From positions 1-64,000 of IMG/VR virus record IMGVR_UViG_3300020469_000023: a stretch of DNA of 64,000 nucleotides; one strand, given 5' to 3'. The notes under the pieces are model-generated. The model did not search any database. It saw only the letters and a list, made by a program, of their open reading frames with translations, and was not told where the DNA came from. The translations under genes and the position numbers were made by a program. The stretch's first letter is position 1. The number at the start of each line of letters is the position of its first letter. Below, in pieces: positions 36,561 to 58,136 of this stretch. This DNA is from a virus.

Positions 36561-36568
36561 ACGTCTAT

Positions 36569-36925
36569 TTATATCTCTCGAAGTTTCTCGACAACATTTT
36601 TATCCATTTCTATGTTGGTATACTCTTCGTTTTTAATTGTTTTAAGAAAAATAAGAAAGGGTTTGATAACTGGCCAGTATTCTAGTTCTAGTTTAAGTTC
36701 AAGAATATTAAGACCTGCTTCAATGTCAAAGACATTAAAGATTACAATAAGATGATTTAGTATAAGACGTTCAGAAAGAACACCACTATCTCTGTAACGA
36801 TTAAGTAATCGTTTGATGTATTTAAAACGTTTTAAATCTTCAAGAAAATCGTCTGTGTCAATACACTTTGGATTGTAGTAATTCTGAGCGGCATAGACTA
36901 ATAGATTATCTTTCGTTAACTTCAT
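36569..36925 (-). CDS. Conserved T4-like phage protein
   Basis: YYNP.C...FLEDLKRFKYIKRLL...ERLILNH. Confidence 0.8.
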   Translation of the reverse strand: MKLTKDNLLVYAAQNYYNPKCIDTDDFLEDLKRFKYIKRLLNRYRDSGVLSERLILNHLIVIFNVFDIEAGLNILELKLELEYWPVIKPFLIFLKTIKNEEYTNIEMDKNVVEKLREI

Positions 36926-36950: not shown

Positions 36951-37256
36951 TTAACTAAAAAGTTCTTTTACAGTTTGTAGTAGTGTTGCTTTTGATTTTC
37001 TTCTATCTAACTCAACACCTTTTTCTCTAGCAAGTGATTCAAGTTCTAACTTATTCATTTGGTCTAGACCTTTGTTATTAGCAGGTGCTTCTGTTAACAC
37101 TTGTGCTTTTTTAGGTTTAGCACCAAAAAATAAATCTATTTCTTCTGTAGTAAATCCGGCACTTACATAAAGTTCGCCTGTGTCAGGGTCTTCCCAACCG
37201 TTCGCAGTAGGTACTGCATTTTCACACCAACCTGGTGCAACTGGTTTAATCGCCAT
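36951..37256 (-). CDS. Hypothetical protein with C-terminal HeH/Rho-N-like motif
   Basis: MNKLELESLAREKGVELDRRKSKATL. Confidence 0.65.
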   Translation of the reverse strand: MAIKPVAPGWCENAVPTANGWEDPDTGELYVSAGFTTEEIDLFFGAKPKKAQVLTEAPANNKGLDQMNKLELESLAREKGVELDRRKSKATLLQTVKELFS

Positions 37257-38944
37257 TATTTTTCTCCTTTAGTCTTTGGTAATTCTTTTGGTTGCATAGG
37301 TAAATCTTTTGGGTCATTGTCTTTAACCATTGTACCTTTATCACCATTCTTTCTTTTTGCCATTCTTTCTAAAAATGACTTAGCATCTTTAGTTCGTGCA
37401 TCAAAAGGATTTCTGTTATCTTCTTTAGCACTAGCAACTATCTTTCTCATTTCAGGTACATTTTTACCTGATAATGCCTTAATTGCTAAGTCCATAAGAG
37501 TATTTTCAGTTTTAATTGATTTCTTACCTTCACCTTCTTTAGGTTCTTTTTCACCTTTAACAGGTGCTTCTGTAGATTTAATAGGTTTAGAGTCGCCTTT
37601 TGCTTGTTGTTGTTTGACATGTTTGCCTTGTTTAGTGTCTTTAGCAGTTTTAGAAGTGTCGTCTATTGCTTTTTCACCATCAACAACTACGTCTTTTTTA
37701 CCATGTGCATCTACAAAGTCTGTCTCACCTTCAGGATTGTTCTCACCTTTTTCTTCTGGTTCAGAACCATCTTTCTCTTTTTTCTTCTTACCAACAGCAT
37801 CAACTGCCATTAGTTCGTTTAAGAGATTAGTAAAGTCTGATACTTGTGCGGCCTCACTCAATTCTTTTTGTACATCTTTAATAGTTTTTGCCTTAGCACT
37901 AACTCCTAAATTTCCCTTAGCGAATTTAATAAGTACAGCATCTGGACCTGACATTTGAACATTGTCACCGCCAAATGGACTAGAACTAATTTTTTTAATT
38001 TTAATACCAAGTTTTTTTGCATTTCGTCCGCCGGCGCTAGAACCTTCATAGTCATCAACTTTTATTGTACCTTCACCAATTTTAGAGATTTCTGCTTCTT
38101 TTTCACCAGCATTACCAGAAGTTTTCTTTTTCTTTTTGTCTTCAGGTTTTTCTACGCCAACTTTTGGTTTGTCTTCTTCTGCATCATCTTCACTAGGTTT
38201 GTCTGCATCAGGTACCATAGGTTTCTTTTTCTTCTTCATTGGGTTTTCATCTGAGTCCATCATTTTTGGTTCTTCTTCTTCTTCGTCCTCTTCTTTCATT
38301 TTTTTCTTTTGACTCTTAATCATTTTGTCATCGTCTTTGTGGACTTTTTCTTTGTGTGCTTCTGTTTGAAGAATTTGCATGTCTTCTGCAGGGACTTCTT
38401 TTTCTATACCATGAGCAAACTCAACATCATACCAGTCAACAGAACCGTCATCGTTTGGTATTGCATGAGATTCGTATACTGGTTTACCAAGTCCAAACTC
38501 TGGGTGGTCAACGTAAGTTGCACAATCGTGGTCTTTAGAATGACACATTTCACGAATGTCATCTAAACTAAATGATTCTTTTTGAAGTTTGTTTAATTCT
38601 GATTGAACATCATATTCTTTATCACCAACTTTAAATTTCTTTTCACCTTTTTCTTTTGCGGCCATTAATGCTTTACTAAATGCATTGCCTTCTTTTTCCA
38701 TTGCTTTTGAAACTGCTTTACGTCTTTTGTGAAGGAATTTATCAGAAGAGTCAACATCGCCATCGTTATCAATGTCTTTGTCTTTTCTATCGTCAAATTT
38801 CTTTTTAACTGCTTTAGGTTGAACTGCATCTAACCCATCGCCATCATCTGACTTATCGTTCTTGTTTGTTTCGTCAAGAACTTCTTCTTTTTGTTCGTAC
38901 ATACTTCTGTATGCATTTTTAATATTCTGATTTATGTCTGCCAT
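37256..38944 (-). CDS. Highly charged modular prohead-core/internal protein
   Basis: K/D/E-rich; DIDNDGDVDSSD motif; modules bounded by L/I-x-E; start moved to MADIN. Confidence 0.65.
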   Translation of the reverse strand: MADINQNIKNAYRSMYEQKEEVLDETNKNDKSDDGDGLDAVQPKAVKKKFDDRKDKDIDNDGDVDSSDKFLHKRRKAVSKAMEKEGNAFSKALMAAKEKGEKKFKVGDKEYDVQSELNKLQKESFSLDDIREMCHSKDHDCATYVDHPEFGLGKPVYESHAIPNDDGSVDWYDVEFAHGIEKEVPAEDMQILQTEAHKEKVHKDDDKMIKSQKKKMKEEDEEEEEPKMMDSDENPMKKKKKPMVPDADKPSEDDAEEDKPKVGVEKPEDKKKKKTSGNAGEKEAEISKIGEGTIKVDDYEGSSAGGRNAKKLGIKIKKISSSPFGGDNVQMSGPDAVLIKFAKGNLGVSAKAKTIKDVQKELSEAAQVSDFTNLLNELMAVDAVGKKKKEKDGSEPEEKGENNPEGETDFVDAHGKKDVVVDGEKAIDDTSKTAKDTKQGKHVKQQQAKGDSKPIKSTEAPVKGEKEPKEGEGKKSIKTENTLMDLAIKALSGKNVPEMRKIVASAKEDNRNPFDARTKDAKSFLERMAKRKNGDKGTMVKDNDPKDLPMQPKELPKTKGEK

Positions 38945-38946
38945 TT

Positions 38947-39243
38947 TTATCCCCAAAGAGCATTACTTATTACACTTGCTATAACTGTTGCACAAGAAAC
39001 TATTACTATCCAAAAAACTCGATGAATTACCATAACAGTTTGAGCATTTGATTGAACTTGTGCCTCTATAGCATCAAGTTTCACACCATGATTGTTCATT
39101 CTGTCGTGGCCATTCGATAGTTGATTTTCAATACTCACTATCTTCTCTTCGACTCTTGCCAATGAAACGATAGCATCTGACAGTTTATCGATTTTATCTT
39201 CGATTCTGTCTAAACGAGTGGTTGAAGTTTCCTTTGCGACCAT
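38947..39243 (-). CDS. Coiled-coil protein with C-terminal TM (XhlA/holin-like)
   Basis: RLDRIEDKIDKL heptads plus TM. Confidence 0.65.
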   Translation of the reverse strand: MVAKETSTTRLDRIEDKIDKLSDAIVSLARVEEKIVSIENQLSNGHDRMNNHGVKLDAIEAQVQSNAQTVMVIHRVFWIVIVSCATVIASVISNALWG

Positions 39244-40108: not shown

Positions 40109-40447
40109 TTATTTAGTTTTTACGTACAGTCTATTTTTTGCTTGTTTTGTATTATCAAATGACATACCATACATTTTACCTATTCTATTGAGTTGTATGA
40201 CTCTTTGATTGCTAGGCATGTTCATTAATTGTTTTTGCATTGTACCAAATAGTTTTTTCATTGCATCTATTTCAGTAGTAACCATTTGTCCTTCTTCTAC
40301 ATTTTCACCACGAGCATTCTTAAAATCTTGGGCCGAAGGTGCGCCTTTCTCACCAGGTTTTCTCATCTTCTTACCACTTTTTCGTTTCTTATGGATATTG
40401 GCCCATAAAGACTCGTTTGAAGAAGCGAATTGTTTAAATGATTTCAT
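40109..40447 (-). CDS. Putative internal head protein with capsid-targeting-like leader
   Basis: MKSFKQFASSNE then SLWANIHKKRK...KPGEKGAPS. Confidence 0.7.
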   Translation of the reverse strand: MKSFKQFASSNESLWANIHKKRKSGKKMRKPGEKGAPSAQDFKNARGENVEEGQMVTTEIDAMKKLFGTMQKQLMNMPSNQRVIQLNRIGKMYGMSFDNTKQAKNRLYVKTK

Positions 40448-43155
40448 TTTCCGAGTAGTCTTTTTAGACCTTGAACTGTCATTTTCTTATCGTTCATTGC
40501 AGTTTGAACTTTAAGTCTGTCTTGTGGTTTACGAATTGCATCAAACTTTTTCATCATCATCTTAGCATCTGCTGGTTTCAACATTACTTTTTTACCATTT
40601 CGTAATTCTATTTGTGCAGGTCTTTGTAAATCTGTAACTTTTCTTATTTGCATAACAACATTTTTATCTGCGGCCTTTCTGTCATCTTTAGTTGCAACAC
40701 CGTAACCATCATCGTCTTTATCTTTACGTTTACCCATATCTCTCATTGCATCTGCTTTTGCACGAGACATAGATTCTGTATTTATTGCCTTTTCTAAATC
40801 ATCTGCCTGTTTTGCATGAGTCTTAGAACCACCTCTTAACTTCTTAACTAAGTCTTTGACAAATGGTTTGTCTTTGGCATCTAATGCTTCTGACTTAGGT
40901 TTCTCATGAGTATAACCCATTTTACCAAACTTCATATGGTCAGCATATGTATTTGCCATGACTTCTTTATCACCCTTATACATTTTATGTGGTTTAAAGT
41001 CTTTCTCATCTGCACATTCATTCTTAGGTTTCTCACCTCGTTCTTTCTTAGAGATTGCAATTGCGGCCTGTTGTGCGGGAGATACTGCTTCTATTTTATA
41101 TTTTTTACCATAATTAGTCATAAGTGTTTTTAATGCTTTTAAATCTCTTTTGTCATAGGCATTTCCCAAAGCAAGATAAAGTGTAGAATCAATTTGTCCT
41201 TTTGGTTTAACAATCTTAGCAATTTTTTCTTGTTCTGCTTTACCCAATCTAGGGAATCTTTCTTTAACTCTTTGTAATATTGCTTTTTGGTTAGGTGATA
41301 CTGCTTCTTTTTGCATTAACATTTTAGTATTAAGAGTTCCAATCATTTTAAGGATTGAGTCTCTTGCATCTAAAACTTTTTTATAGTCTTTGTTATGTCT
41401 TGTATCTTTTAATTCTTTATCACCTATAGTTGCAATCTTTTGATAAGTTTGTAAAACCTTTTGCATGTCTTTGGAGAGTTTTTTCATTGCATCTACTTCT
41501 TGTCTTGTGACTTCTTGTAAATCAGTTGACTCTTTTCTTGATTTACCAGCAACTTTCATTGTAAGATTAACAAGTCCTGGTAATTTAAGTGTGTCCATTC
41601 TTTTCTTGTTCTGTGAATTAACTTTGTCATATACAGATGCTATCATACTTGCAGTTGTTAAGTCAAGTTGCATACCGTCTATTTTCATCATAGATTTTTT
41701 CTTAACTACTTGACGAACCTTCTTCATAGTTGCAGACTCTTCGTTAAGTGGTGTACCTGATTTATAACCTTCGTATATCAAACTGAATATTAATCCATTA
41801 CTTGCTTGTAAAATAACTTCATAAACATCGTCCCTAATTGCAGTATCTAAATCTGCAAACAAGTTTAATTCTTTAGGGTCTCTCATTATCTTTTTACCCT
41901 TTTTAGTAATAGTCATTCCTTTTGAGATTACATCAATTATCTTCTTAATTTTTGGGGCGTCCATTTCATCTCTCGGTTCACCTTTACCAAAAGCGGCGCC
42001 TTTCTTAGCGGCACCTCTTCTATCTTGGTTCATTATTCTTGCAAGTGACCTAACAATAAGAGAAGTATTCGGGTCTTTTATTTTATGTTTACCGTCTTTC
42101 TTTTTCTGAAGCATGTCCATGACATCATCATGTTCCATTGCTGGACCCGATGCTCTAGATTTTTTGAATTTGGTTCTAATTTTTCGTTCAAGACCGTCTT
42201 GGCCTGGTTTTAGTGCAAATTGTTTTTCTAACAAGTCAAGTTGTTCTTCAAGAGAGTTTAGTTGTGCAAGTACATCTTCTGTTGCAGTATCTTTAGTTCT
42301 TTGTATTTCGTCTTTCTCTTGTTCTGCTTCTCTTTTATGTTTTGCTTTTAAGTCTGCCATTTCTTTTGCTCTTTCAACTGCATCTTCAATTAAAGACGGG
42401 TCTCCATAAGATGATTTACCTCTTGCCACTGCATCAAAGTCTCTTAACTGTTTCTTATTGCCACTCATAGTTACAAGAGTATCATTACCTTTTTTCTTAA
42501 ATGCTACTTTCAACTTCATTAACTTTGCAGATGAATTAAACTTGTCCATTTCAGGTTTTTGTATACCTTTAACTCGGTAAGTCATCGTATTTTCATTTAT
42601 CGATTCTTTCATAGCAGGTAGTTCACCCATTTTAATCGCCATTCTTGAGAAACCTTTTGGATTTTGTTTCTGCATTGACTGTAAAACTTTAACACTAGTC
42701 ATGTTCATAAGATTTGCAATACCGTCTATCTCTTTTCTATTTCTAGTTTTGAATAGTTTACCCAACTTATCTTCCATAGACTCTTCAAGGTCTTTTCTTT
42801 TTAAAACTTTAGTTTTCTTTACTTTACCAAGTGGTATACCATCTGGCATTGCAACAGAAGTTGTGCTTGTCATATCTTCGTTTGCAGTTTTAAGTGCTTG
42901 TTGAACAACAGGCATCTTTGAAAGACCTCTTTTAAGTTTTTCTATTTCTTTACTTGCGAGAGTATAATTACCACCTAAATCAAGTGCAAGTTCAATTGCT
43001 TTCTTAACTGTCTTGTCTTTAGCGGCCATTTTTGCTTTAGGATTATCTTTATAATACTTTGCAACTTCTTGACCCGTAAGTTTAGACTTACCCATTTTAG
43101 ATAATGGGTCTAACTTACCACCTTTAACTCTTTCAGATATGTCTCTGAACTTCAT
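40444..43155 (-). CDS. Putative virion-packaged polyprotein of basic modules
   Basis: MKFRDISE leader; about 12 Lys/Met-rich modules bounded by Glu sites. Confidence 0.65.
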   Translation of the reverse strand: MKFRDISERVKGGKLDPLSKMGKSKLTGQEVAKYYKDNPKAKMAAKDKTVKKAIELALDLGGNYTLASKEIEKLKRGLSKMPVVQQALKTANEDMTSTTSVAMPDGIPLGKVKKTKVLKRKDLEESMEDKLGKLFKTRNRKEIDGIANLMNMTSVKVLQSMQKQNPKGFSRMAIKMGELPAMKESINENTMTYRVKGIQKPEMDKFNSSAKLMKLKVAFKKKGNDTLVTMSGNKKQLRDFDAVARGKSSYGDPSLIEDAVERAKEMADLKAKHKREAEQEKDEIQRTKDTATEDVLAQLNSLEEQLDLLEKQFALKPGQDGLERKIRTKFKKSRASGPAMEHDDVMDMLQKKKDGKHKIKDPNTSLIVRSLARIMNQDRRGAAKKGAAFGKGEPRDEMDAPKIKKIIDVISKGMTITKKGKKIMRDPKELNLFADLDTAIRDDVYEVILQASNGLIFSLIYEGYKSGTPLNEESATMKKVRQVVKKKSMMKIDGMQLDLTTASMIASVYDKVNSQNKKRMDTLKLPGLVNLTMKVAGKSRKESTDLQEVTRQEVDAMKKLSKDMQKVLQTYQKIATIGDKELKDTRHNKDYKKVLDARDSILKMIGTLNTKMLMQKEAVSPNQKAILQRVKERFPRLGKAEQEKIAKIVKPKGQIDSTLYLALGNAYDKRDLKALKTLMTNYGKKYKIEAVSPAQQAAIAISKKERGEKPKNECADEKDFKPHKMYKGDKEVMANTYADHMKFGKMGYTHEKPKSEALDAKDKPFVKDLVKKLRGGSKTHAKQADDLEKAINTESMSRAKADAMRDMGKRKDKDDDGYGVATKDDRKAADKNVVMQIRKVTDLQRPAQIELRNGKKVMLKPADAKMMMKKFDAIRKPQDRLKVQTAMNDKKMTVQGLKRLLGK

Positions 43156-43439: not shown

Positions 43440-43685
43440 CTAACCTAAATCTTGGTCGTGATTTAATTTAATACCTTTCTTTTTCTTAGTAATGAAGGCA
43501 TTAACTCTTGCCATACCCCATTGTGCTGGAGTTGTCCCTGGTCTATGACCAGTTCTCCATGCGGCAACACCTCTATCGAATACTTTTTTTAAAGTTTTAA
43601 ATGCAAATCCAGACTTTGATGCCTTGTTTTGAAGACCTTTAGTCGAACTTTCTTCTATTTCTGCATATTCTTTAAAAGATATCAT
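43440..43685 (-). CDS. DUF5824-like basic protein with capsid-targeting-like leader
   Basis: Start moved to MISFKEYAEIEE, after TATAAATA 43691-43698; VFDRGVAAWRTGHRPGTTPAQWGMARVN. Confidence 0.75.
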   Translation of the reverse strand: MISFKEYAEIEESSTKGLQNKASKSGFAFKTLKKVFDRGVAAWRTGHRPGTTPAQWGMARVNAFITKKKKGIKLNHDQDLG

Positions 43686-43701
43686 GTTTCTATTTATACT
43701 A

Positions 43702-44940
43702 TTAGTCATCGCCAAACATTTGTTTGTATGATTTCGTATGTTTACTAAGTTTTGTTCCTTTCTTTCTTGCCTTTTTGTCTCCAGGTGCATCTTTGTATGC
43801 AGATGGATTATCATCGTCCATCTTACCATGTTTAGCAAAATGTGATGCTCTAGAACTTTTCGTTTTCTTTGCTACACCTTTATAGTAAACAGATGGTTGC
43901 GAACCTTCTTTATCTTTGACATCTTTATCTTGAGCAACTCTTGCCTTTTCTTTTTCCATGATAGTCGCAACGTCATCAACAATTTTTTCTGCAACACGTT
44001 TAGCAGTAGCAGTAGCAATTGCCATTTTTTTACTCATGTCCATTTTAGGGTTATCTTTTTCAATTGCTTTTGCTATCTCTTCTCTTTTCTTAAGTTCTGC
44101 TGGTGTTAGTTTCTTTTCAACAAGTTCTATTGCATCTAACCATTTACGTACTTTCTTTTTATCACTTGTTTCAATAATAACATAATTAGAACCTAATACT
44201 GTAATAACACCAACTTCTTCTGATTCTTTGATAACAACAGTATCGCCTATTTCATAAAGACTACCTTTGATGTAGTTCTCTCGAAGTTCGTTTAATTTAC
44301 CAAGGTCAACATGACGTTTGAACTTTTTCTCTTCTTTAAGTCCCATGCCTTTACGAACATCATTAAATAACTTACGAGTATCTTTATCATTCATTGTGCT
44401 TGGTACACCTTGAGAGAATGCAGTATAATCATTTTGTTGAGCATTTGCTCTTTGTTTTGATGCAGACATACCAGCAACTCCTTCAGCATCTGGGTCACGT
44501 TCACCTGCAGACAATACATTAATTGATTCAAAGTTGTAGAAACCATGTCTACCTTTGACACCATTATACTTTTTCAATAGTGTGTCAAACTCTCTAACTC
44601 TATCAGAACCAACAATCATATTTACTTTACGATATCCTTGGTCATATAGTTCTGTTACAGCATCAAAGGCAGTTCTTATCTTTTTATTAATGATAATACT
44701 TCTACCATGTTTTGGAAACATTTTTCGCATATGTTTGATTTTATCTGAGTAAGATAGTGGGTCTTTCTTTGGATTAGATACTTGTGAAGTAAAAACTTTA
44801 TAGTCATTTCTACCAGATTTCTTTGCTAAATTTTCAAGTACTTTACCATGTCCAATAGTAGGTGGATTCATTCTACCAAACGTGAAGAATACCTCTCTTT
44901 CTGCTTCAATTAAATATTGTGAAAAGTTTTTGATTGCCAT
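43702..44940 (-). CDS. HIGH-motif nucleotidyltransferase (cytidylyltransferase-like) with C-terminal basic modules
   Basis: FTFGRMNPPTIGH, VGSDR, SAGERDPDAEG..GMSASK; leader MAIKNFSQYLIE. Confidence 0.85.
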   Translation of the reverse strand: MAIKNFSQYLIEAEREVFFTFGRMNPPTIGHGKVLENLAKKSGRNDYKVFTSQVSNPKKDPLSYSDKIKHMRKMFPKHGRSIIINKKIRTAFDAVTELYDQGYRKVNMIVGSDRVREFDTLLKKYNGVKGRHGFYNFESINVLSAGERDPDAEGVAGMSASKQRANAQQNDYTAFSQGVPSTMNDKDTRKLFNDVRKGMGLKEEKKFKRHVDLGKLNELRENYIKGSLYEIGDTVVIKESEEVGVITVLGSNYVIIETSDKKKVRKWLDAIELVEKKLTPAELKKREEIAKAIEKDNPKMDMSKKMAIATATAKRVAEKIVDDVATIMEKEKARVAQDKDVKDKEGSQPSVYYKGVAKKTKSSRASHFAKHGKMDDDNPSAYKDAPGDKKARKKGTKLSKHTKSYKQMFGDD

Positions 44941-44946
44941 GATATA

Positions 44947-45309
44947 TTACTTATCTTCTTTAGATTTCTTTTTCTTTGCTAACTCATCTTTCCTTACTTG
45001 TGGTAAAATCTTTACAGCAAACTTTTTAATCTTATTTTTCATTTTGTCAAGTTTTTTCTCAATCTCATTTCTTCGAGCAAGAGATACTTGTTGAGGTGCT
45101 TGACCTTTAGTTATTTTCTTAAAGAACTTTAGACGTGCTTTTTTCAATGCACGTTTCTTTAGTTTCTCAGGTGATGCTATTTTACGGGCCGCTTTCTTTC
45201 GACCCATTGCGATTTTTGCCTTGATTTTTTTGAATTGACGAGACCTCTTCAACCTTTGTTGAACTGTCATTGCTTCGTCTGTAGTTGTGAACTCTTTAAA
45301 TGATTTCAT
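44947..45309 (-). CDS. Extremely basic prohead-core-like protein
   Basis: MKSFKEFTTTDE leader, then K/R-rich helix. Confidence 0.7.
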   Translation of the reverse strand: MKSFKEFTTTDEAMTVQQRLKRSRQFKKIKAKIAMGRKKAARKIASPEKLKKRALKKARLKFFKKITKGQAPQQVSLARRNEIEKKLDKMKNKIKKFAVKILPQVRKDELAKKKKSKEDK

Positions 45310-45310
45310 T

Positions 45311-47557
45311 TTACCTCGGTTTATCCCATCCTTTCAATATATTAGCAGAAAAGTTATTATAAGAAAATTCTAATCTATCAACTAACTTAACTGCACCACC
45401 ACCTAACTTATCAATAGCAACATATCCTTCTGCACCTGTTGTTTTATAACCATTTCTTGTTTTTACAAATGCATCTATATTGCTAATGTTGTTTAATCTA
45501 TTTATAAGTTTTAGTTTTGCGAGAACTATATTCTTCTGTAAATCAAACATATTGACAAGCGAAACTCTATTTTGTGGTGAAAAGAACTTTAAAATTGTGT
45601 CTAATTTATCTTGTTGTGTTTGTTTTCCTTTTGCAGTTTTACGTTTGTCCATTTCTTTTTTATATTTATTCTCAATCCAACGTATCAATCTTGCAGTATG
45701 TTTCTTACTGTCTGGTAACATTTGCCCTGCTCTAACAAAAGTATTATTGTATTGTTCGATTAATTGTGCAAGTTCTGGATTCTTTTCTAGTTCTCGAAGT
45801 GTATCACCAGCGACTTTGTTAAAAAGAAAACCAGCAGTACTTAAATAACCTGTAACTTCTGTTGTTTCTTTTTCATTCATTGTTGCCTCACCAGCGCCAC
45901 TTAGTTCTGCATCTTGCGACCAAACTGCTGGAGAAGATGGTATCTTTTTCACACCATACGATGCTTTCATTGATGCAAAGTCTTTACCTTTATATGTTGT
46001 ATGCCAAACTATACCAATCTGTGACTTAGTAATACGTTTGGCCGCTTCTGTACCTGATTCAACTGCATAGACAATTGTGTTTGGGTGAAATGTAATATAC
46101 TGCTTACCATCTATTTTAGTTTTACTTAAGTCTTGTTTTGAGTATAAGAAGTCTCCTTGTATGACATCTTTAATACCAAGATTCTTTAAATGCTTCAATG
46201 CAAGTTTTAGTTTCTCTGCTAAATCGCCTGAAGTATCAGCATCAATATCAGCATTTGATTTATATACTTTTGGATTCTTAGCAAAGATACCTTTCTTAGC
46301 AACAAAGAACTTACCATCACTTGGGTCTTCACCACAGAAGATTGCTGGTGCACCATCCCACTTAACTGACATCTTAGTTGATGATTTACCTGCTAACATA
46401 TCACGTATACTTCTCAAGGCATTGATTGCCTCTCTTGTACCTTTGACTCCACCATACAAAACTTTATCTTCTATATGTGTCATGTGTGTATTCTTTTCTT
46501 CTGGTAAGAAAAGACTTTTGTAAGATTCTGTCTGAAATGGTGTCAACTTACGATACTTTTTATTGTTCTTCGGGTGATATTCCATGTAGTCTTCGTTTCT
46601 TTCTTTAGTTTTCTTTTTCATCTTATTAATATATGTACGATAGATTGCCGCTTCTGCAGATTTACCCATTTCTTTTGCACGTTGTTCCATAGCAACTGCC
46701 GCTTGGATTTTGTGTGCATGTTTTTTACCAGAGTTTTCTATCTTCTTAACACTTGCTCTTGCAGTTTCAACGTCTTTAAATCCTAATCCATGTATTGTAC
46801 CTTTAGGGTTTTCATCTGTATATAAATCAGAATGTTTTTTAGAGTTAGCGGGTTGACCTTTCTTTCTAGGTATTCTAGGGTTTGTCTCTTCTTTCTGAGT
46901 CTTTATCCACTTTTGTGCAATTGGATTCATAGGTTTCTTGTCTGCAAATTGTTTTATTATTCTAAATGCTCTAGTTGTTTCTTTATTATAGTCTTTTCCA
47001 TCTGAGTTGTCAACTATTGTCAATCTACTTTTAAATGCTCTTTGATATTTACCAACGTTTCTTTGAACATTGTCCCACATCTTTGCAACTTCTTTCGGGT
47101 CTAGTTTTCTTGCTCTTTCCATATTTCTACGTAAAGCAGTTTCTTTATCTGTGTTGACAAATATCATTGCAGTAGAATAACCTAATTCTTTTAGTTTTTC
47201 ATTCTGTCTAATTATTTTATCTGCATCACGCCCTGTACCATCAATGACTAAACCAAGTCTGCCTTTCATATACATCATTTGTTGTTTTGCAGTCAACTCT
47301 TTTGCTTTAGTTCTTATATCTTGACCACCAACAGAAAAAATATTATCAGGGTTCATTTCTAGACCTGCTTGATTCATTGCACGTTCAAATGCAGTATCAG
47401 AATTTACAACTTTAAAACCTAAAGATGTAAGTCCTGTTTTACCAACAATAAATGATTTACCACTACCTGGTCCACCAGCAAGAAAGATTGCTTTGAAGAT
47501 TGCAGGGTCATTAACACCTTCTTCAACTTCTGCTATGTGTTCATTAAAACTTAACAT
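45311..47557 (-). CDS. Multidomain protein: P-loop kinase + basic module + ligase-like (DUF6267-like) domain
   Basis: GGPGSGKS, VIDGTG, R...R lid; SVKWDGAP, IQGDFL, EGYV, VKLVDRLEFS. Confidence 0.75.
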   Translation of the reverse strand: MLSFNEHIAEVEEGVNDPAIFKAIFLAGGPGSGKSFIVGKTGLTSLGFKVVNSDTAFERAMNQAGLEMNPDNIFSVGGQDIRTKAKELTAKQQMMYMKGRLGLVIDGTGRDADKIIRQNEKLKELGYSTAMIFVNTDKETALRRNMERARKLDPKEVAKMWDNVQRNVGKYQRAFKSRLTIVDNSDGKDYNKETTRAFRIIKQFADKKPMNPIAQKWIKTQKEETNPRIPRKKGQPANSKKHSDLYTDENPKGTIHGLGFKDVETARASVKKIENSGKKHAHKIQAAVAMEQRAKEMGKSAEAAIYRTYINKMKKKTKERNEDYMEYHPKNNKKYRKLTPFQTESYKSLFLPEEKNTHMTHIEDKVLYGGVKGTREAINALRSIRDMLAGKSSTKMSVKWDGAPAIFCGEDPSDGKFFVAKKGIFAKNPKVYKSNADIDADTSGDLAEKLKLALKHLKNLGIKDVIQGDFLYSKQDLSKTKIDGKQYITFHPNTIVYAVESGTEAAKRITKSQIGIVWHTTYKGKDFASMKASYGVKKIPSSPAVWSQDAELSGAGEATMNEKETTEVTGYLSTAGFLFNKVAGDTLRELEKNPELAQLIEQYNNTFVRAGQMLPDSKKHTARLIRWIENKYKKEMDKRKTAKGKQTQQDKLDTILKFFSPQNRVSLVNMFDLQKNIVLAKLKLINRLNNISNIDAFVKTRNGYKTTGAEGYVAIDKLGGGAVKLVDRLEFSYNNFSANILKGWDKPR

Positions 47558-48644
47558 TTCTTTTTACTCTAATATCTGGTATCGCACCAAGAAAAGATGT
47601 AAGTTGTCTCAAACCTTTTTTAAAAAAGTTTGTAACTTTACTCCATGTTTTACTTACAAATGATTTAACTTTATTTAATATGTTAAATTCAACTAATGTT
47701 TCTTTTTCATTTGTATCTAATTCTTCTGTCATAGAGTCTACTATTAATGAAATTACTGACCAGAAAAAATATTCTCCAGTTCCACCTTTTTCATTAGTCG
47801 GAGATACAAGTTCTTTTTTAGTTCGTTGTGATGTTTTAAACCTTGTTTGAAGTTTCATTGCAGTTGCTATTTTTTCACAATAACTATCATCATTAACATC
47901 ATGAATTTCTACTTTTCCACCGTCAGCAGTAGAGACCAACATTAAGTCTGCAGATGCTGGACTACTTTTACCAAATTTTTCATAACCTGACATTGCTTCT
48001 CTGGCAAATTCTATTTTAAATTCTTTAGACTGATTAAATAAATTACCAAGTTCTTTCATACAATCTTTGTGTGCTTTTTCCGCGGCATTAACTACTTTGT
48101 TTGTACCCGCTTTAATTAAAGGTCTAATTTTTGAAGGTGCTAATGTATTTTTTACAAAACCTTCTAATACTTGATTTGTTTTTTTATATTGTGGACTTTT
48201 TACTAAATCTGAATTAGAATTTTTAACTGCCGCTTGAAACGTTGCAGTTGATTCTGCTTTACCGCCAGACATTAGTTGTGCTAAACCTATTTTAACTGAA
48301 AAGTTTTTATCACCTATTTTTACATCTGTTTTTGGTGTAGTATCAGAAGCATCATATGATTTCCAAAAATCTGTTAAACTAGATTTTGTTCTACCAAATA
48401 CTTCTGCTTTTTTATTTTTTAGTTGTGGGTAATCTTTTAGTATTTTTGTTGCAATTAATTCACCTGTTTTTTTGGCACTTGGAGTATTTTCTATTTTATC
48501 GTAAAGTTGTTGTTTAATACCATAATCTTCTGTAGATTCCATTACTCTTTTAGTTACAGTATAAAAACCCATAACTATTGCCGCTTCATAATCTTCTGCT
48601 TTTAATTTTGCTTCTGTCAAAAAATTATTTTTAAATGAATGCAT
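47544..48644 (-). CDS. Putative PD-(D/E)XK nuclease-like protein with capsid-targeting-like leader
   Basis: MHSFKNNFLTE; YEAAI...TPKTDV..FSVK...QLMSG. Confidence 0.55.
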   Translation of the reverse strand: MHSFKNNFLTEAKLKAEDYEAAIVMGFYTVTKRVMESTEDYGIKQQLYDKIENTPSAKKTGELIATKILKDYPQLKNKKAEVFGRTKSSLTDFWKSYDASDTTPKTDVKIGDKNFSVKIGLAQLMSGGKAESTATFQAAVKNSNSDLVKSPQYKKTNQVLEGFVKNTLAPSKIRPLIKAGTNKVVNAAEKAHKDCMKELGNLFNQSKEFKIEFAREAMSGYEKFGKSSPASADLMLVSTADGGKVEIHDVNDDSYCEKIATAMKLQTRFKTSQRTKKELVSPTNEKGGTGEYFFWSVISLIVDSMTEELDTNEKETLVEFNILNKVKSFVSKTWSKVTNFFKKGLRQLTSFLGAIPDIRVKRNVKF

Positions 48645-48816: not shown

Positions 48817-48834
48817 AACTACTATTTATAATAG

Positions 48835-53360: not shown

Positions 53361-53368
53361 TATAAATA
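53361..53368 (+). promoter_or_regulatory. T4-type late promoter of the curli-like operon
   Basis: TATAAATA 7 nt before ATG 53376. Confidence 0.75.
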
Positions 53369-53375
53369 GACGTGT

Positions 53376-53672
53376 ATGAACAATATAATGAAATTATTAA
53401 TGGAAGTGGGTATCCCGATTGGTAGTGCAATCATCATGGGGTTCTTTATCTTTCTGACTTTAAAATACATTTTAGATAGTGTTGGTGGTTCTGTTACAGG
53501 TCTTACTAACATTATGAATGGTTTAGAGTCAAGAGTTCGTCAAATGAATAATGATATGATAAAGATTGACTTGTTAGTAAGTGAGTCTTTAGATTTAAGA
53601 CCAGACATCGATAGAGTTGCGAGAGCAGAAAACTTTATGGAAGATGGTAAGATAGACTCTAGGAGAGATTAA
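53376..53672 (+). CDS. Single-TM coiled-coil protein
   Basis: EVGIPI..IMGFFIF TM; MNNDMIKID. Confidence 0.75.
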   Translation: MNNIMKLLMEVGIPIGSAIIMGFFIFLTLKYILDSVGGSVTGLTNIMNGLESRVRQMNNDMIKIDLLVSESLDLRPDIDRVARAENFMEDGKIDSRRD

Positions 53673-54001
53673 TGAACAGCAGTAATATTAATCAAATTGT
53701 TTTGATTATTGATGAGGTTGGTTATCCAGTTTTAATGGCAATCGGTATGGGATATTTTATCTGGTATGTTTGGAAGTATGTGACGAAAGAACTAAAACCA
53801 AAAATTGGTGCTTCACATAAGACTCTTATTAAATTATTAGACCAGATTAGAATGCTTGACAATGACTTGATACGATTACAACAGAAAGTAAATACTGTAA
53901 TCGAATATAGAAAACAAGAAGAATTAAAAAAACAAGGGCAAGAAGATGAAGACAGCACAGTATATATTAATGATATGGGTAAGTCTAACGATAACAAGTA
54001 A
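53672..54001 (+). CDS. Single-TM coiled-coil protein, paralog of the upstream gene
   Basis: EVGYPV..GMGYFIW TM; IRMLDNDLIRL. Confidence 0.75.
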   Translation: MNSSNINQIVLIIDEVGYPVLMAIGMGYFIWYVWKYVTKELKPKIGASHKTLIKLLDQIRMLDNDLIRLQQKVNTVIEYRKQEELKKQGQEDEDSTVYINDMGKSNDNK

Positions 54002-54428
54002 TTTGTTTGCTGACCAGATAGTTCATAAATTTAAATCTCCATCATTTAGTGGTATTGGACAATCGTCACACTATTTAACAATAGAGAATCAACAGAAGTC
54101 TCGTAGAGATAAGATTCAAGAAGATATCGAATCTGCAATTGCAAAAGCAGAACGTGAAGCAGATAGTACGACCCATGCTAAGTTCCTTAGAAACTTAGAG
54201 TCAAGAATCTATGCTCAAATATCAAAACAATTAGTTGACCAAATGTTTGGTGATGGAGTAAATGAAGGTTCAATAGAAGGTTTCTTTGATATGCTTGGTA
54301 ATACTGTAGCATACGAATTATGTACAGGTTGTGGTGATGATGGTATTGATGTAATTAGAATTACAATTACAGGCGATGATAATACAACAACAACATTAGA
54401 TGTACCAGTAGGTAGTGGAGCATTTTAG
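53946..54428 (+). CDS. csgF: Curli assembly component CsgF-like
   Basis: Signal peptide then DQIVHKFKSPSFSG (CsgF F.NP.FGG-like), F..NLESRIYAQIS, TTLDVP; directly upstream of CsgG. Confidence 0.85.
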   Translation: MKTAQYILMIWVSLTITSNLFADQIVHKFKSPSFSGIGQSSHYLTIENQQKSRRDKIQEDIESAIAKAEREADSTTHAKFLRNLESRIYAQISKQLVDQMFGDGVNEGSIEGFFDMLGNTVAYELCTGCGDDGIDVIRITITGDDNTTTTLDVPVGSGAF

Positions 54429-55300
54429 TGAAAATATTTTTATTGATAGGAGTATTCGTTCTATCAAGTTGTGCTAGTATTCCTTCTTTCTCACGTATAG
54501 ATTGTGATGAAAGAGAATTAGCATGTCGAGAAAGTGCAACTATAGAAAAGTTGCCATCGACAGCAGAATTAAAAAAAGTGCCAGGTCCAAGTAATGGTAA
54601 ACCTGTAGTAGTTGCAGTTTATGGATTTACAGACAAAACTGGCCAAAGAAAAAGTAGAGATACATTTTCAGATTTTTCTACTGCAGTAACACAAGGTGCA
54701 GATTTACTTGTTATTGATGCACTTAAAACTGCAAGTAATGGAGAGTGGTTTAGAGTAGTTGAGAGAACTAATATAGATGCTCTCATAAGAGAAAGGCAAA
54801 TAATAAGAAGTTCTAGAGAAGAGTTTAAAGAAGATAAACAACTAGCATCTTTAGTATTTGCAGGGATTTTAATTGATGGTGGTGTTGTTGGGTACGACAC
54901 TAACATCGAAAGTGGTGGTCGTGGAGCAAGATACTTAGGTATCGGACACAATACATCATATAGAAGAGATTCAGTAATTGTTAGTCTAAGGGCAACCTCA
55001 ACACTAACAGGTGAAATTTTAATGAATGTTCAGGCGAAAAAAACTATTTTGTCTGTCGGTGGCGGTTATGATTTATTCCGATTCTTTGATATGGATACAA
55101 AGTTATTGGAATTTGAAGATGGTAACGGATTTAACGAAAGTGTAACGTTTGCAGTTCGCTCCGCTATTGAAGTTGCCGTATTAGAACTTATTTACCAAGG
55201 ACACGATAGAGGTTTTTGGAAAATGAAAAGTGACCATCGTCACCCACACTTAAGTGATGGGACTAACGATAAACACTTAATAACTAAGGAGAAAGAATGA
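54428..55300 (+). CDS. csgG: Curli secretion pore CsgG
   Basis: Lipobox LSSC, VAVYGFTDKTGQRK, STAVTQG, WFRVVER, ERQIIR, GGVVGYDTN, GGRGARYLGIG. Confidence 0.95.
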   Translation: MKIFLLIGVFVLSSCASIPSFSRIDCDERELACRESATIEKLPSTAELKKVPGPSNGKPVVVAVYGFTDKTGQRKSRDTFSDFSTAVTQGADLLVIDALKTASNGEWFRVVERTNIDALIRERQIIRSSREEFKEDKQLASLVFAGILIDGGVVGYDTNIESGGRGARYLGIGHNTSYRRDSVIVSLRATSTLTGEILMNVQAKKTILSVGGGYDLFRFFDMDTKLLEFEDGNGFNESVTFAVRSAIEVAVLELIYQGHDRGFWKMKSDHRHPHLSDGTNDKHLITKEKE

Positions 55301-56214
55301 GAACTTTAATTCTCGCTTTATTATTAACAGCAAGTGCTTTTGCATTTGCGGATAATGAAATATATATCGAGCAAGTTGGTGAAGGTGTAGAAATTATTAT
55401 TGAACAAACAGGTAATGGAAACTTGATTGGGCAAAATACTAGCACTGGTGCTAATGCGACCGACATGAAACTGCAGATAGGTAACTCTAATGCATATTGG
55501 TTGTTTAATGGAAGTAACAACTTACTATTTGGTGATATCAACTCAGATGGTTCAAACATTGACTATAATGTTCAAGGTTCGAACAACAGAATCAATCAAT
55601 TGATTGGTACTGTAACTGGTAATACTAGTAGTAATCAAAGTGCAGATGCCATTGATATGAATGTAGATGTTCAAGGTGATTATAACCAGACAACGTTTAG
55701 GTTAGGTAATAAATCTGAAACTTACAATACACCTCATAATTTAGGTGATGGTGCATTTTTTAACAATAGTGCAGGTTTTAAAACGTATAGCAATCATACA
55801 TTTACAGGTAGTAACATCACGGGTTATGGAACTTATGGTGGTAATGCTACAAGTAACTATGGGTCAAATGCCGCATATTGGGATGCCTGGAATATTACAG
55901 AAGGTAGTGCTGATGGTGCCAACATTGACTTATTAGTTGATGGCAGTGGTGCTTCAAATACTATTGGTGCATTTATAAACTCTTCAAATGCTGTTTGGGA
56001 TTGGGACATAACTGGTTCAAATAACTGGATATTAACAACTCAAGAAGATGGAAGTGATAATAAAATATCTGTTGATTTAACAGGTGATAAAAACTATGTA
56101 TTTGTTGGTCAAAGAACAGGTACAAGTATAAGTGGTGCAGAGGCGATATTAGATGCAAGTTTTGTTACAGACGGTTCAGAAATTACGATTATTCAACAAG
56201 ATACTGGCGAGTAA
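55297..56214 (+). CDS. Curlin-like secreted beta-solenoid protein
   Basis: Signal peptide, ADNEIYIEQVG, repeated (Q/V)xGxxN; N/G/S/T-rich. Confidence 0.75.
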   Translation: MRTLILALLLTASAFAFADNEIYIEQVGEGVEIIIEQTGNGNLIGQNTSTGANATDMKLQIGNSNAYWLFNGSNNLLFGDINSDGSNIDYNVQGSNNRINQLIGTVTGNTSSNQSADAIDMNVDVQGDYNQTTFRLGNKSETYNTPHNLGDGAFFNNSAGFKTYSNHTFTGSNITGYGTYGGNATSNYGSNAAYWDAWNITEGSADGANIDLLVDGSGASNTIGAFINSSNAVWDWDITGSNNWILTTQEDGSDNKISVDLTGDKNYVFVGQRTGTSISGAEAILDASFVTDGSEITIIQQDTGE

Positions 56215-57304
56215 TCTTATTCTAATAGGGTCTGTTTATGCAGACTCTATTGGCGATATTCGTGAGCATACTGGTAGTGCGGCAATCGAAAGAGAATCTG
56301 GTGAAGAACTAGTTGTCTCTCCTGCTTTTTTACCTGATGTTGAAATGAATGATACTGCTATTACTGGTAATGGCAGAATGTTAATTGAATTCAAAGATAA
56401 AGAAGAATTAGCATTGACTGAACACACAAAGATTTATATTGATGAAGTATATTATGACCCTGACCCATCGCTGTCAAAGATGACTATGCGAATGGCACTT
56501 GGTACTGCTAGATTTACATCTGGTAGAGGTGAAATGATTGACAAAGCAAACATTGACATTTCAACACCAACTGCTCAGATAGGTATTCGGGGAACAGATT
56601 TTACAACTACAGTTGATGAACTCGGTAGAACGTTAGTTGTATTATTACCTGATGAAAATGGAGAATCATCTGGTGAAATATTTATTACAAATGCTGGTGG
56701 GACAATTACATTGAATGAAGCATATCAATCTATGATGCTTCAATCATTTGATGTAATGCCACAAAGAACAGTTATTCTTGAAGGCATTACGCCCGATTCA
56801 ATTAATAATATGTTTATTGTTAATCCACCAAAAGAGATAAAAGAAGTAGAAGCAGAAGGAGAAAGTAAAGAAGACGATGCTCAAGGTATTTTAGATGTAG
56901 ACTTCTTGGCATACGATGCCTTAGAAGAAGATGCTTTAGAAGATAAAGGAGAATTAGAATATACAGAACTAGATATTGACTTATTAGATGTTGAGTTTCT
57001 TCAAGACGTATTAGACATTACTGCTGACCTCGATAGAATAAATGAGATTGATAGAGAGGTTGCAGATATAGGTAATGTTAACATTGAAGGTACTCAAGTA
57101 GGGTTTGATGATGATAGTCAATATAGTACGTTTGTTAATAAAGAAGAAGAGACGATTGTTATGACTAGAGAAGTAGAAGGTGTAATTAGAATAACTCATG
57201 CGATTTATACAAATGCAGTTATTGAAACATACACTAACCAAAAACCAAGCGAGATAACTTTAGGAGATGGTTCAGATGCAAGAATCATAATAATACAAGA
57301 ATGA
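56153..57304 (+). CDS. FecR-domain secreted protein with acidic tail
   Basis: D..ITGNG...F.D, ISTPTAQIGIRGTDF; LDVDFL/LDIDLL repeats. Confidence 0.85.
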   Translation: MQVLLQTVQKLRLFNKILASNLILIGSVYADSIGDIREHTGSAAIERESGEELVVSPAFLPDVEMNDTAITGNGRMLIEFKDKEELALTEHTKIYIDEVYYDPDPSLSKMTMRMALGTARFTSGRGEMIDKANIDISTPTAQIGIRGTDFTTTVDELGRTLVVLLPDENGESSGEIFITNAGGTITLNEAYQSMMLQSFDVMPQRTVILEGITPDSINNMFIVNPPKEIKEVEAEGESKEDDAQGILDVDFLAYDALEEDALEDKGELEYTELDIDLLDVEFLQDVLDITADLDRINEIDREVADIGNVNIEGTQVGFDDDSQYSTFVNKEEETIVMTREVEGVIRITHAIYTNAVIETYTNQKPSEITLGDGSDARIIIIQE

Positions 57305-58131
57305 TTAAATTTTTAAAAGAAAATACATCACCACAAGGTATAAAGACTATCGTAACAATGTGGATTTTATTTGCATTTGCTATTGGTGGTTGTGAATATG
57401 TATATGCTGATAATGAAGTATATATTACTCAAAGTGGTGAAGGTACAAAGTTGTTTATCGAACAAGAAGGTAAAGATAATAAAGTAGACTTCTCAATGCA
57501 ACATCAGGGTAATGAAGTAAAAATAATCCAGCATGGGCATAATAATAAAATAGCATATGGACATTGGGGTTCACTAACTAGTGGAGATATAGATGGAACG
57601 TTTAATTCATTAGACTTTGCACAAATATGTGGACGTGGTTCAAGTTGTAAAGAATCTGATATCGGTCTGCATATCTATGGAGACAATAACTCAATACGTT
57701 GGGGACAAGGATATATTTTAAGTTCTCCGACTTCAACTTGGACATGGGACGGAAGTGAAGGTGGTGGTCATCATCTAACTTTAGATGTTCATGGAGATAA
57801 TAATAATGTTGCGGGTAGTCAAAGAAACTCATCTGCAGGCATCTATAGTGAACACCAAGCAGATATCTATCTTTACTCTAATAACAATAGTGTTTTTTGG
57901 AGACAAAATACAGATGGTGTTAAAGATGTAAATTTATACACATATAATGATGGTAATAATATTACTGGTTATCAATCTGGTTATGCAACACATACTGCAA
58001 ATATATCTTTAACTGGGTCTAGTCCAACAACATTAAATTTAACTCAAGAAGGTAACTCTGCTCAATCATATTCACTATCACAAAACTGCCAAACTATGGG
58101 TGGTTGTAGCATTTCTGTTACACAACAATAA
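57301..58131 (+). CDS. Curlin-like (CsgB/CsgA-type) protein
   Basis: ADNEVYITQSG, QEGKDN, QHGHNN, GDNN repeats; C-terminal C..GGC.ISVTQQ. Confidence 0.78.
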   Translation: MIKFLKENTSPQGIKTIVTMWILFAFAIGGCEYVYADNEVYITQSGEGTKLFIEQEGKDNKVDFSMQHQGNEVKIIQHGHNNKIAYGHWGSLTSGDIDGTFNSLDFAQICGRGSSCKESDIGLHIYGDNNSIRWGQGYILSSPTSTWTWDGSEGGGHHLTLDVHGDNNNVAGSQRNSSAGIYSEHQADIYLYSNNNSVFWRQNTDGVKDVNLYTYNDGNNITGYQSGYATHTANISLTGSSPTTLNLTQEGNSAQSYSLSQNCQTMGGCSISVTQQ

Positions 58132-58136
58132 AGACA

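Follow-up and report, generated by a model that had tools for sequence, protein, structure and literature searches.

A modular, glutamate-punctuated protein of a pelagimyophage-like phage as a candidate precursor of head-internal proteins

The 903-residue open reading frame and its modules

The DNA analysed here (hereafter the window) covers the opening 64 kb of an IMG/VR viral contig of 99,095 bp (record IMGVR_UViG_3300020469_000023) and carries on its minus strand, at positions 40444-43155, an open reading frame (ORF) of 903 amino acids (aa) plus stop, the product of which is built from about eleven modules. An initial annotation had described this protein as a string of unrelated modules that a Glu-specific prohead protease would release, and its reading of the region as a single 903-aa ORF is confirmed. 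The ORF is real and conserved. Its product contains 157 Lys (17.4%), 52 Met, 74 Asp and 53 Glu and has an isoelectric point (pI) of 9.85. All twelve junction sites named at that stage are present in the translation (E93, E125, E188, E257, E310, E472, E548, E617, E689, E713, E756 and E794), as are the two module starts reading E↓AVSP (the arrow marks a proposed cut throughout).

Judged by its gene content, the source phage belongs to the T4-like marine myophages (Kyanoviridae) and is pelagimyophage-like. This assignment is based on a gp21-family prohead protease, on capsid identities and on a curli-type operon. The protease, encoded by a 219-aa ORF of the contig (G000 88412-89071), matches Peptidase_S77 (PF03420) with 135.7 bits in a profile search (G000:C1:88574-89002), and the genes for the portal, an acidic gp22-like scaffold and the major capsid protein adjoin it. 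The identity of the major capsid protein to its counterparts amounts to 69% in Phage C48C1, 62% in Methylophilales phage Melnitz and 61% in Pelagibacter phage HTVC008M. The operon, consisting of CsgF/CsgG-like genes and their neighbours, occupies positions 53361-59966 of the plus strand of the window and is of a type known from pelagimyophages (PMC7029224).

Metagenomic homologs of the 903-aa protein numbered 529 in a word-indexed search, and an exhaustive search returned 1071 clusters at E<=0.001. Module borders were set from the pile-up of homolog alignment starts (aa 3, 124, 183, 255, 301, 469, 543, 617, 687, 752 and 796) and ends (aa 97, 127, 179, 258, 293/300, 463, 541, 621, 714, 756 and 792) on the query, without reference to the previously named sites, and the boundaries obtained in these two ways agree within a few residues (Table 1). 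The check proposed there, whether modules recur in other orders or alone in related phages, came out positive. When 261 homologs were scanned with module profiles, the modules proved to be permuted in order and to form more than 200 different architectures, such as M1-M8-M4-M3-M7-M10-M12, (216 aa)-M6-M8-M3-M11-M1-(212 aa) and M7-M12-M10; the homologs are therefore not collinear, and the modules are, according to these profiles, shuffled among relatives. M1 is N-terminal in 102 of 138 non-redundant carriers and M12 is C-terminal in 82 of 89, and M5 is found at other positions in homologs.

Single modules also occur as small ORFs, namely P0157 (M1), P0239 (M4), P0261 (M7), P0229 (M9) and P0182 (M12). 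Two of these are possibly truncated calls, with P0182 beginning at a module edge (MNTE↓S) and P0261, a 78-aa record containing only M7, beginning inside that module (MKKVRQV), downstream of the LNE↓ESAT border. The stand-alone modules P0229, P0239 and P0204 possess leaders of their own that end in φ-x-E (φ, hydrophobic) exactly at the polyprotein border. P0229, an 86-aa M9 ORF, begins MKSWTTPGDNYFKE↓AVSP and has the same C-terminal border as in the polyprotein, and the M4 ORF P0239 begins MDAYREMWEEKLNE↓EVITYRVKG. Because these leaders end at the polyprotein border and leader-like text (..NTYRNVWEETLNE↓) also stands between the modules of longer proteins, the comparison suggests that the strings arose via in-frame fusion of leader-bearing single genes. 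Furthermore, DUF5824 is fused to modules in some homologs, and PHROG profiles unite DUF6267, a nucleotidyltransferase and DUF5824 in other phages, so that the whole gene block draws on one module pool.

Where M4 is the last module of a homolog (P0239, P0250, P0242, P0155, P0160 and others), the protein ends in ..GDPSTI.HFDEK, and this F-D-E-K tail, which is conserved, may serve as a site of C-terminal trimming. In one IMG/VR relative (L014:8001-10846), the gene is split into a 136-aa ORF containing only M1 and an 812-aa remainder that starts within a module; this split could be natural, a frameshift or an assembly error.

A full-length AlphaFold2 model based on an alignment with 43 homologs has no global fold (predicted template modelling score (pTM) 0.28; mean predicted local distance difference test score (pLDDT) 59.7). 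Confident islands (pLDDT 70-85) cover residues 31-93, 126-179, 189-245, 341-384, 397-465, 473-537, 621-686 and 827-900, and segments with pLDDT <50 comprise residues 1-26, 94-125, 180-188, 246-299, 307-309, 320-337, 385-396, 466-472, 538-553, 610-620, 687-766 and 792-826. In this model the islands coincide with the modules, or beads, and the gaps with the junctions. Of the linkers, three terminate exactly at a conserved Glu (E125, E188 and E472) and a fourth stops one residue before E310, and the linker at 538-553 holds the conserved E548 and terminates at E553, a residue without a hydrophobic P3 (the third residue before the cut, P1 being the first). The mini-domains envisaged earlier are thus seen as independent islands, and M4 folds when predicted alone, giving a compact beta-alpha-beta-beta-alpha domain (pLDDT 85.9, pTM 0.68). 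In structure comparison this model scores Z 7-9 against members of the entire ferredoxin-like class (ACT, RRM, HMA, acylphosphatase and pro-domains); values of this size are background in the search, and no function is claimed from the match. KH-domain rows in Foldseek (E about 0.5) looked like a lead and were dropped, as the dedicated M4 model matches that whole class.

No family above the cut-off was found by Pfam and PHROG searches with the whole protein, and no Pfam family passed it when nine separate pieces were searched, the only matches being sub-threshold ones to CggR_N, PCuAC and similar families; for M6 the sole match was the sub-threshold CggR_N (winged-helix). With no module matching a known family, the DNA-binding or anti-defence role first suggested for the modules is conjectural. 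The whole protein had no tblastn match among 50,697 phage records, and its parts gave module-sized matches only: the C-terminal third a weak match to M12 in Melnitz, and the N-terminal part a match to M1 in C48C1. Foldseek with the full-length model returned no match at E<=0.001 in PDB and BFVD, and the ESM Atlas searched with M6 returned only unnamed viral clusters with scores <0.8. A tape-measure or tail role was rejected on the grounds of locus, composition and architecture.

Table 1. Features of the 903-aa protein and of neighbouring genes (positions in the window)
Feature	Position	Strand	Residues (aa)	Borders from alignment breakpoints (aa)	Remarks
Leader	43132..43155	minus	1-8		MKFRDISE, ends I-S-E; putative capsid-targeting or propeptide cut site; E8 99% conserved, P3 hydrophobic in 100% (89 aligned homologs)
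Bead M1	42781..43131	minus	9-97 plus variable tail to E125	1-97	Usual N-terminal module; ends DLEE↓S; pLDDT 71-79 at aa 31-93, <50 at aa 94-125
Bead M3	42592..42780	minus	126-188	124-182	Four helices; ends SINE↓N; pLDDT about 80 at aa 126-179; linker 180-188 terminates at E188; 96 instances in homologs
Bead M4	42385..42591	minus	189-257	183-258	Ferredoxin-like beta-alpha-beta-beta-alpha mini-domain; ends SLIE↓D
M5	42226..42384	minus	258-310	255-300	Acidic Glu-rich long helix (259-313, low pLDDT), pI 4.8; LEE↓Q and LLE↓K conserved at end; E304 and E310 P3 hydrophobic in 95-96%
Bead M6	41740..42225	minus	311-472	301-465	Largest, 18 kDa, pI 9.8; ends PLNE↓E; confident islands aa 341-384 and 397-465; linker 466-472 terminates at E472
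Bead M7	41512..41739	minus	473-548	466-542	Glu-free at 474-541; ends RKE↓STDLQE↓V; pLDDT 75-79; 165 instances in homologs
Bead M8	41305..41511	minus	549-617	543-620	Helical hairpin (helices 546-576 and 589-615); ends MQKE↓AVSP; preceded by L/I-x-E in 40/42 distinct junctions
Bead M9	41089..41304	minus	618-689	617-688	Starts AVSPNQ; ends YKIE↓AVSP; pLDDT 63-75
M10-M11	40774..41088	minus	690-794	M10 687-756; M11 752-796	Starts AVSPAQQAAIAISKKERGE; contains PKNE↓C, PKSE↓A and INTE↓S; mostly low-confidence; pLDDT <50 at aa 687-766
Bead M12	40447..40773	minus	795-903	795-903	C-terminal; 1 Glu, 14 Asp; pI 10.3; pLDDT about 80 at 827-900
112-aa Lys-rich gene	40109..40447	minus			Leader MKSFKQFASSNE↓; downstream of the 903-aa gene
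DUF5824 gene	43440-43685	minus			Leader MISFKEYAEIEE↓; follows the nucleotidyltransferase
Nucleotidyltransferase gene	43702-44940	minus			Cytidylyltransferase-like (HIGH-type); leader MAIKNFSQYLIE↓
Gene with T4 capsid-targeting-like leader	44947-45309	minus			Leader MKSFKEF..DE↓
748-aa gene	45311-47557	minus			Leader MLSFNEHIAE↓; N-terminal Zeta_toxin/AAA_33-type P-loop kinase, C-terminal DUF6267
Gene with T4 capsid-targeting-like leader	47544-48644	minus			Leader MHSFKNNFLTE↓

Junction motif and glutamate distribution

The T4 prohead protease gp21 cuts after L/I-X-E (PMC9026906), and its cut sites in T4 Alt are ITE-6 and LTE-619 (PMC5694885). In the family of the 903-aa protein, recurrent texts precede unrelated modules regardless of the upstream neighbour, including S-T-x-L-N-E↓, ESINE↓, STDLQE↓, x-L-D-E↓ and, before M1, φ-x-E↓ followed by R or K and V. 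The motif before M1 is found both at the true N-terminus (MKFRDISE↓RV, MRLKDLRE↓RV) and at internal copies of the module (AVNE↓RV, EIDE↓KV). When junctions were anchored on the first residues of M1, M4, M7 and M8 in 213 non-redundant proteins, 171 distinct junctions were obtained, with Glu at P1 in 165 and L/I/V/M/F at P3 in 160 (Leu in 100, Ile in 47), so that the junction motif fits the T4 gp21 consensus. In the query (P0001), the conserved φ-x-E columns are E8, E125, E188, E304, E310, E472 and E548, with E257 and E462 partly conserved, and the conserved Glu residues inside modules (E30, E55, E202, E397 and E850) almost never have a hydrophobic P3.

The number of L/I/V-x-E motifs in the protein is ordinary (11 against 9.6 expected), and their placement alone is unusual. 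Between -3 and +9 of a homology breakpoint, such a motif is present 35% of the time, compared with 17% at random positions; for L/I/V-x-D the values are 13% at breakpoints and 17% at random positions. The P3 codons in 14 related IMG/VR loci comprise TTA, CTT, CTA, TTG and CTC for Leu, ATA for Ile and GTA for Val, and this variation places the conservation of the motif at the protein level and not in DNA microhomology alone. Among the twelve sites first named as cuts, seven to eight have a canonical hydrophobic P3; E93, E617, E713, E756 and E794 are without one in the family and are consequently doubtful as gp21-type sites. E689 is 98% conserved and has a hydrophobic P3 in 27% (alignment column) to about half (46 distinct M9/M10 junctions) of cases.

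In T4, the maturation cut of the capsid protein gp23 falls at F-L-T-E↓A. The capsid protein of the present phage carries M-L-F-E↓A at the aligned position, which supports the view that its own protease shares the specificity of T4 gp21. Cleavage of the 903-aa protein by a Glu-specific prohead protease is well supported, though only indirectly, by the gp21-family protease on the contig, by the L/I-x-E motif before unrelated modules and by this T4-aligned capsid site.

Glu is specifically depleted in the bead cores. The low-confidence linkers of the AlphaFold model, which make up 34% of the length, hold 29 of the 53 Glu residues (p=0.0015) and show no enrichment of Asp; in the structured parts, Glu amounts to 4.0%, as opposed to 7.4% across the remaining ORFs of the phage (p=4e-4), and Asp stays level (7.5% versus 6.9%). 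The family-wide Glu/Asp (E/D) ratios of the module cores are 0.12 for M7, 0.15 for M12, 0.39 for M4, 0.40 for M6, 0.57 for M8 and 0.72 for M3. The two Glu-poor stretches initially singled out, in M7 and at the C-terminus, are as described (Table 1). The broader claim that Glu is concentrated at module boundaries holds with respect to the linkers and fails for the Glu-rich helix at 258-310 and for the conserved interior Glu residues, and the proposed selection against internal Glu applies to five to six of eight modules, M1 and M9 being the exceptions.

Neighbouring genes and their leaders

Several genes around the ORF begin with short Glu-ending leaders of their own (Table 1). These closely resemble the T4 capsid targeting sequence MKTYQEFIAE (PMC8442874), much more so than the leader of the 903-aa protein does, and that of the 748-aa protein, MLSFNEHIAE, nearly equals its ending (..EFIAE). 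In PHROG profiles from other phages, DUF6267 is fused to a cytidylyltransferase-like domain; the 748-aa kinase and DUF6267 protein is possibly a co-packaged nucleic-acid-end enzyme. The basic tail of the nucleotidyltransferase contains the text KMAIATATAKRVAE, which is common to internal M1 junctions of bead proteins, and the product of the 112-aa downstream gene has the junction text GEKGAP.AQDFKNARGE in common with homologs of the 903-aa protein.

These leaders recur in IMG/VR relatives and at the loci that are syntenic in Phage C48C1 and Melnitz. The latter two phages provide, for example, MKKFSEIIE↓A and MLSFKQFVSE↓V, and also MSKYLETKKGSIESAVLE↓AMSPAQQAAIAISKKE, which is an M10-type module. 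In Melnitz, the genes MelnitzEXVC044M_20 and _21 carry M12- and M10-type modules. Only the specific M-x-S/T-F-K type of leader is enriched in the locus (34-48 kb). Outside it, the only strict pattern match on the contig that resembles such a leader belongs to a Lys-rich gene of 69 aa that lies between those for the protease and the portal (G000:C1:89071-89277, minus strand, equivalent to L003:7068-7277), which begins MKTFFSLRE↓AV; the strict pattern also matched a 594-aa Lys-poor ORF (MALFTPSASPAVTVKE), which is unlike a leader.

In addition, a 566-aa protein (window 37256-38956, minus strand) is rich in Lys, Asp and Glu (Lys 18%), is conserved in the relatives L008, L009 and L014, and starts with the leader-like text ..NAYRSMYEQKEEVLDE↓T, similar in type to the inter-module ..TYRNVWEETLNE↓. 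It is probably a further member of the cargo set. Four TATAAATA boxes resembling T4 late promoters stand shortly before the starts of genes within or next to the locus (43691, 39274, 36566 and 48823, the last before a doubtful 61-aa ORF), and those at 43691-43698, 36566-36573 and 48823-48830 (minus strand) stand 5-6 nt before the ATG, leaving no room for a ribosome-binding site.

Interpretation and known systems

It is considered probable that the 903-aa ORF encodes a polyprotein precursor of head-internal proteins in a pelagimyophage-like T4-type phage. We infer packaging, cleavage and ejection, as well as the function of the beads, along the following lines. The polyprotein would be made alongside the head proteins and brought into the prohead scaffolding core by its leader and M1, where a gp21-type serine protease would cut after Glu at L/I/V-x-E motifs situated in flexible linkers just before the folded beads. 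Eight canonical cuts would give nine products, comprising the 8-aa leader, the acidic helix (258-304), a six-residue spacer (305-310) and six basic products with a computed pI of 9.8-10.0. Five of the basic products would have masses of 7-18 kDa, and the remaining one would be a C-terminal block of 40 kDa (aa 549-903). This block would fall into five or six more pieces (computed as 2.6-12.4 kDa, pI 8.1-10.3) only if non-canonical Glu sites of the E↓AVSP type, which are invariant, were also cut. The basic pieces would stay with the packaged DNA, like T4 IPI-III, and would presumably be ejected alongside it. Recombination at or near junctions, or the fusion, in frame, of single-module genes with leaders, could generate new combinations that are still processable because the junction motif travels with the downstream module.

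A more far-reaching proposal, to which slightly less than an even chance is given, is that of a combinatorial cargo. The leader and M1 would carry about ten interchangeable basic mini-proteins into the prohead, where they would be cut apart at L/I-x-E, and the string could be freely reshuffled because each module has its own N-terminal cut site. The result would be an ocean-wide, fast-evolving arsenal of co-injected DNA-coating or counter-defence proteins, beside co-packaged enzymes with the same leader (kinase-ligase-like and nucleotidyltransferase).

Several observations speak against a precursor of head-internal proteins. The gene belongs to a block on the minus strand that is flanked by the DnaB/exonuclease (replication) genes and by ribonucleotide reductase, outside the head module. 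The protein's own leader, MKFRDISE, bears a loose likeness to MKTYQEFIAE, a loose leader pattern (φ-x-E ending at residues 7-17) is not enriched in the locus (5/16 versus 32/120), and the TATAAATA boxes are at chance level (9 found, 11 expected), so that late expression is not established. The junctions at E617, E689, E713, E756 and E794 are deficient in hydrophobic P3, and M1 and M9 have an E/D ratio of 1.1, close to the phage background of 1.07, and hence no Glu depletion. Pfam and PHROG gave no match of any bead to a known internal protein or any known family, and a literature search found no virion proteome of any relative. Moreover, T4 internal proteins are cut only once, so that T4 offers no precedent for several fragments being released from one protein and retained.

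Among the alternatives, it is unlikely that the protein is packaged but trimmed only at its leader, as T4 IPI-III are, or left uncut, serving as one long DNA-condensing string of beads with the motifs as linker or recombination signatures. A Lys content of 17% and a pI of 9.85 would suit neutralisation of DNA charge in the cut and the uncut form alike, and several junctions are without a canonical P3. However, modules that are unrelated to each other are preceded by the same motif, which is conserved as protein sequence across Leu, Ile and Val codons and is located in linkers predicted to be flexible and accessible. Since gp21 requires "very few determinants" beyond L/I-X-E (PMC9026906), exposed sites within the prohead would be expected to be cut, and the selective scarcity of Glu in bead cores would be difficult to account for unless a Glu-directed protease were at work.

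The chance that the ORF encodes a non-virion, intracellular modular protein, involved for example in host nucleoid or RNA remodelling, with leaders and Glu motifs as a family habit, is judged to be small. Such a role would accord with the position of the gene, flanked by DnaB/exonuclease and ribonucleotide reductase genes and remote from the head module, with the generic ferredoxin-like fold of M4, as in RRM/ACT-type binding domains, and with the hypervariability of this region in pelagimyophages, which is the only respect in which the pelagimyophage paper treats it (PMC7029224). It would leave aside that the junction motif corresponds to the specificity of the protease encoded by the phage, that a gene of the head module has the same leader type, and that Glu and Asp behave asymmetrically. 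The position itself is shared by the T4 internal-protein genes, which are likewise located outside the T4 head module. Less probable still is a scaffold or core-type assembly protein comparable to T4 gp22, gp67 and gp68, whose pieces leave the capsid before packaging, with nothing delivered. Although T4 core proteins undergo multi-site L/I-X-E cleavage (PMC9026906, PMC5694885) and the acidic long helix M5 (aa 258-310) is scaffold-like, an acidic gp22-like scaffold already adjoins the protease, the beads are folded and basic with masses of 7-18 kDa rather than short acidic peptides, and the module content is highly variable among close relatives, contrary to what one would expect of an indispensable assembly component.

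If the reading as a precursor of head-internal proteins is true, the protein set packaged by certain marine myophages, which rank among the most abundant, is much larger, modular, fast-shuffled and protease-processed, and this would indicate a hidden layer of phage-host conflict in SAR11/OM43-type hosts. The sequence rule of a leader plus L/I-x-E before each domain would then predict capsid cargo from metagenomes, and the arrangement would constitute a natural design for multi-protein delivery via T4-type capsids. This prediction is testable on cultured phages (Melnitz, HTVC008M-like phages and C48C1).

The T4 internal proteins are the classic proteins co-injected with phage DNA, with IPI acting as an anti-restriction factor, and, to our knowledge, all described cases are encoded by single genes of coliphages. 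They have been described as "highly basic" and are each cut only once (PMC8442874); they reach about 1000 copies per head, their lysines contact DNA phosphates, and their set differs between related phages (PMC3012670). The present system resembles IPI, IPII and IPIII (together with Alt) in belonging to a T4-type phage with a gp21-family protease and in its small, highly basic predicted products, and it shares with IPI-III a set that varies between relatives and a gene outside the head module; its short N-terminal sequence ending in I-S-E may be a comparable leader. Unlike the separate T4 genes, which have their own leaders and undergo one cut, about eleven units with internal motifs are fused here, and the 8-aa leader is only loosely like the T4 sequence. 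No sequence similarity to IPI, IPII or IPIII was found with PHROG and Pfam; the T4 internal proteins are a functional class, not a homology class. The targeting leader, Glu-specific prohead processing, variable basic internal proteins and the polyvalent-protein idea (PMC5512222) are parts that are already known. A T4-type phage with a shuffled internal-protein polyprotein and the motif at its joints is not described in the T4 head reviews, the giant-phage proteolysis papers or the pelagimyophage genomics paper.

Polyvalent proteins combine 2-15 unrelated domains per polypeptide in variable architectures (Iyer et al. 2017, PMC5512222). The 903-aa protein is similar to them in its many unrelated domains and variable architectures (about 11 modules, and more than 200 architectures in 261 homologs), as well as in the predicted packaging and delivery with DNA and possible proteolytic release. 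However, polyvalent proteins contain recognisable enzymatic or anti-restriction domains, often with an embedded MPTase or a MuF/portal link, whereas tiny basic beads are proposed here to be released by the prohead protease at L/I-x-E. Pfam detected no effector or enzymatic domain (MPTase, ART, methylase, ParB etc.) in the ORF, the enzymes being encoded in separate neighbouring genes, and the family search detected no embedded peptidase and no portal/MuF fusion or adjacency, the portal gene being about 45 kb away.

The inner-body and ejection proteins of phiKZ, 201phi2-1 and SPN3US offer a parallel in that a gp21-related protease (gp175/gp245) cuts them after Glu at multiple sites, with fragments retained on the DNA. 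Their motif is S/A/G-x-E, in contrast to the Leu (100) or Ile (47) at P3 of the 171 junctions counted here, and they are encoded by separate, often paralogous genes of jumbo phages rather than by a shuffled polyprotein of a T4-like phage. T4 gp22, gp67 and gp68 likewise have several L/I-x-E sites that are cut by gp21; unlike the beads, these proteins are acidic, are broken down into peptides which exit the head, and are conserved, not shuffled.

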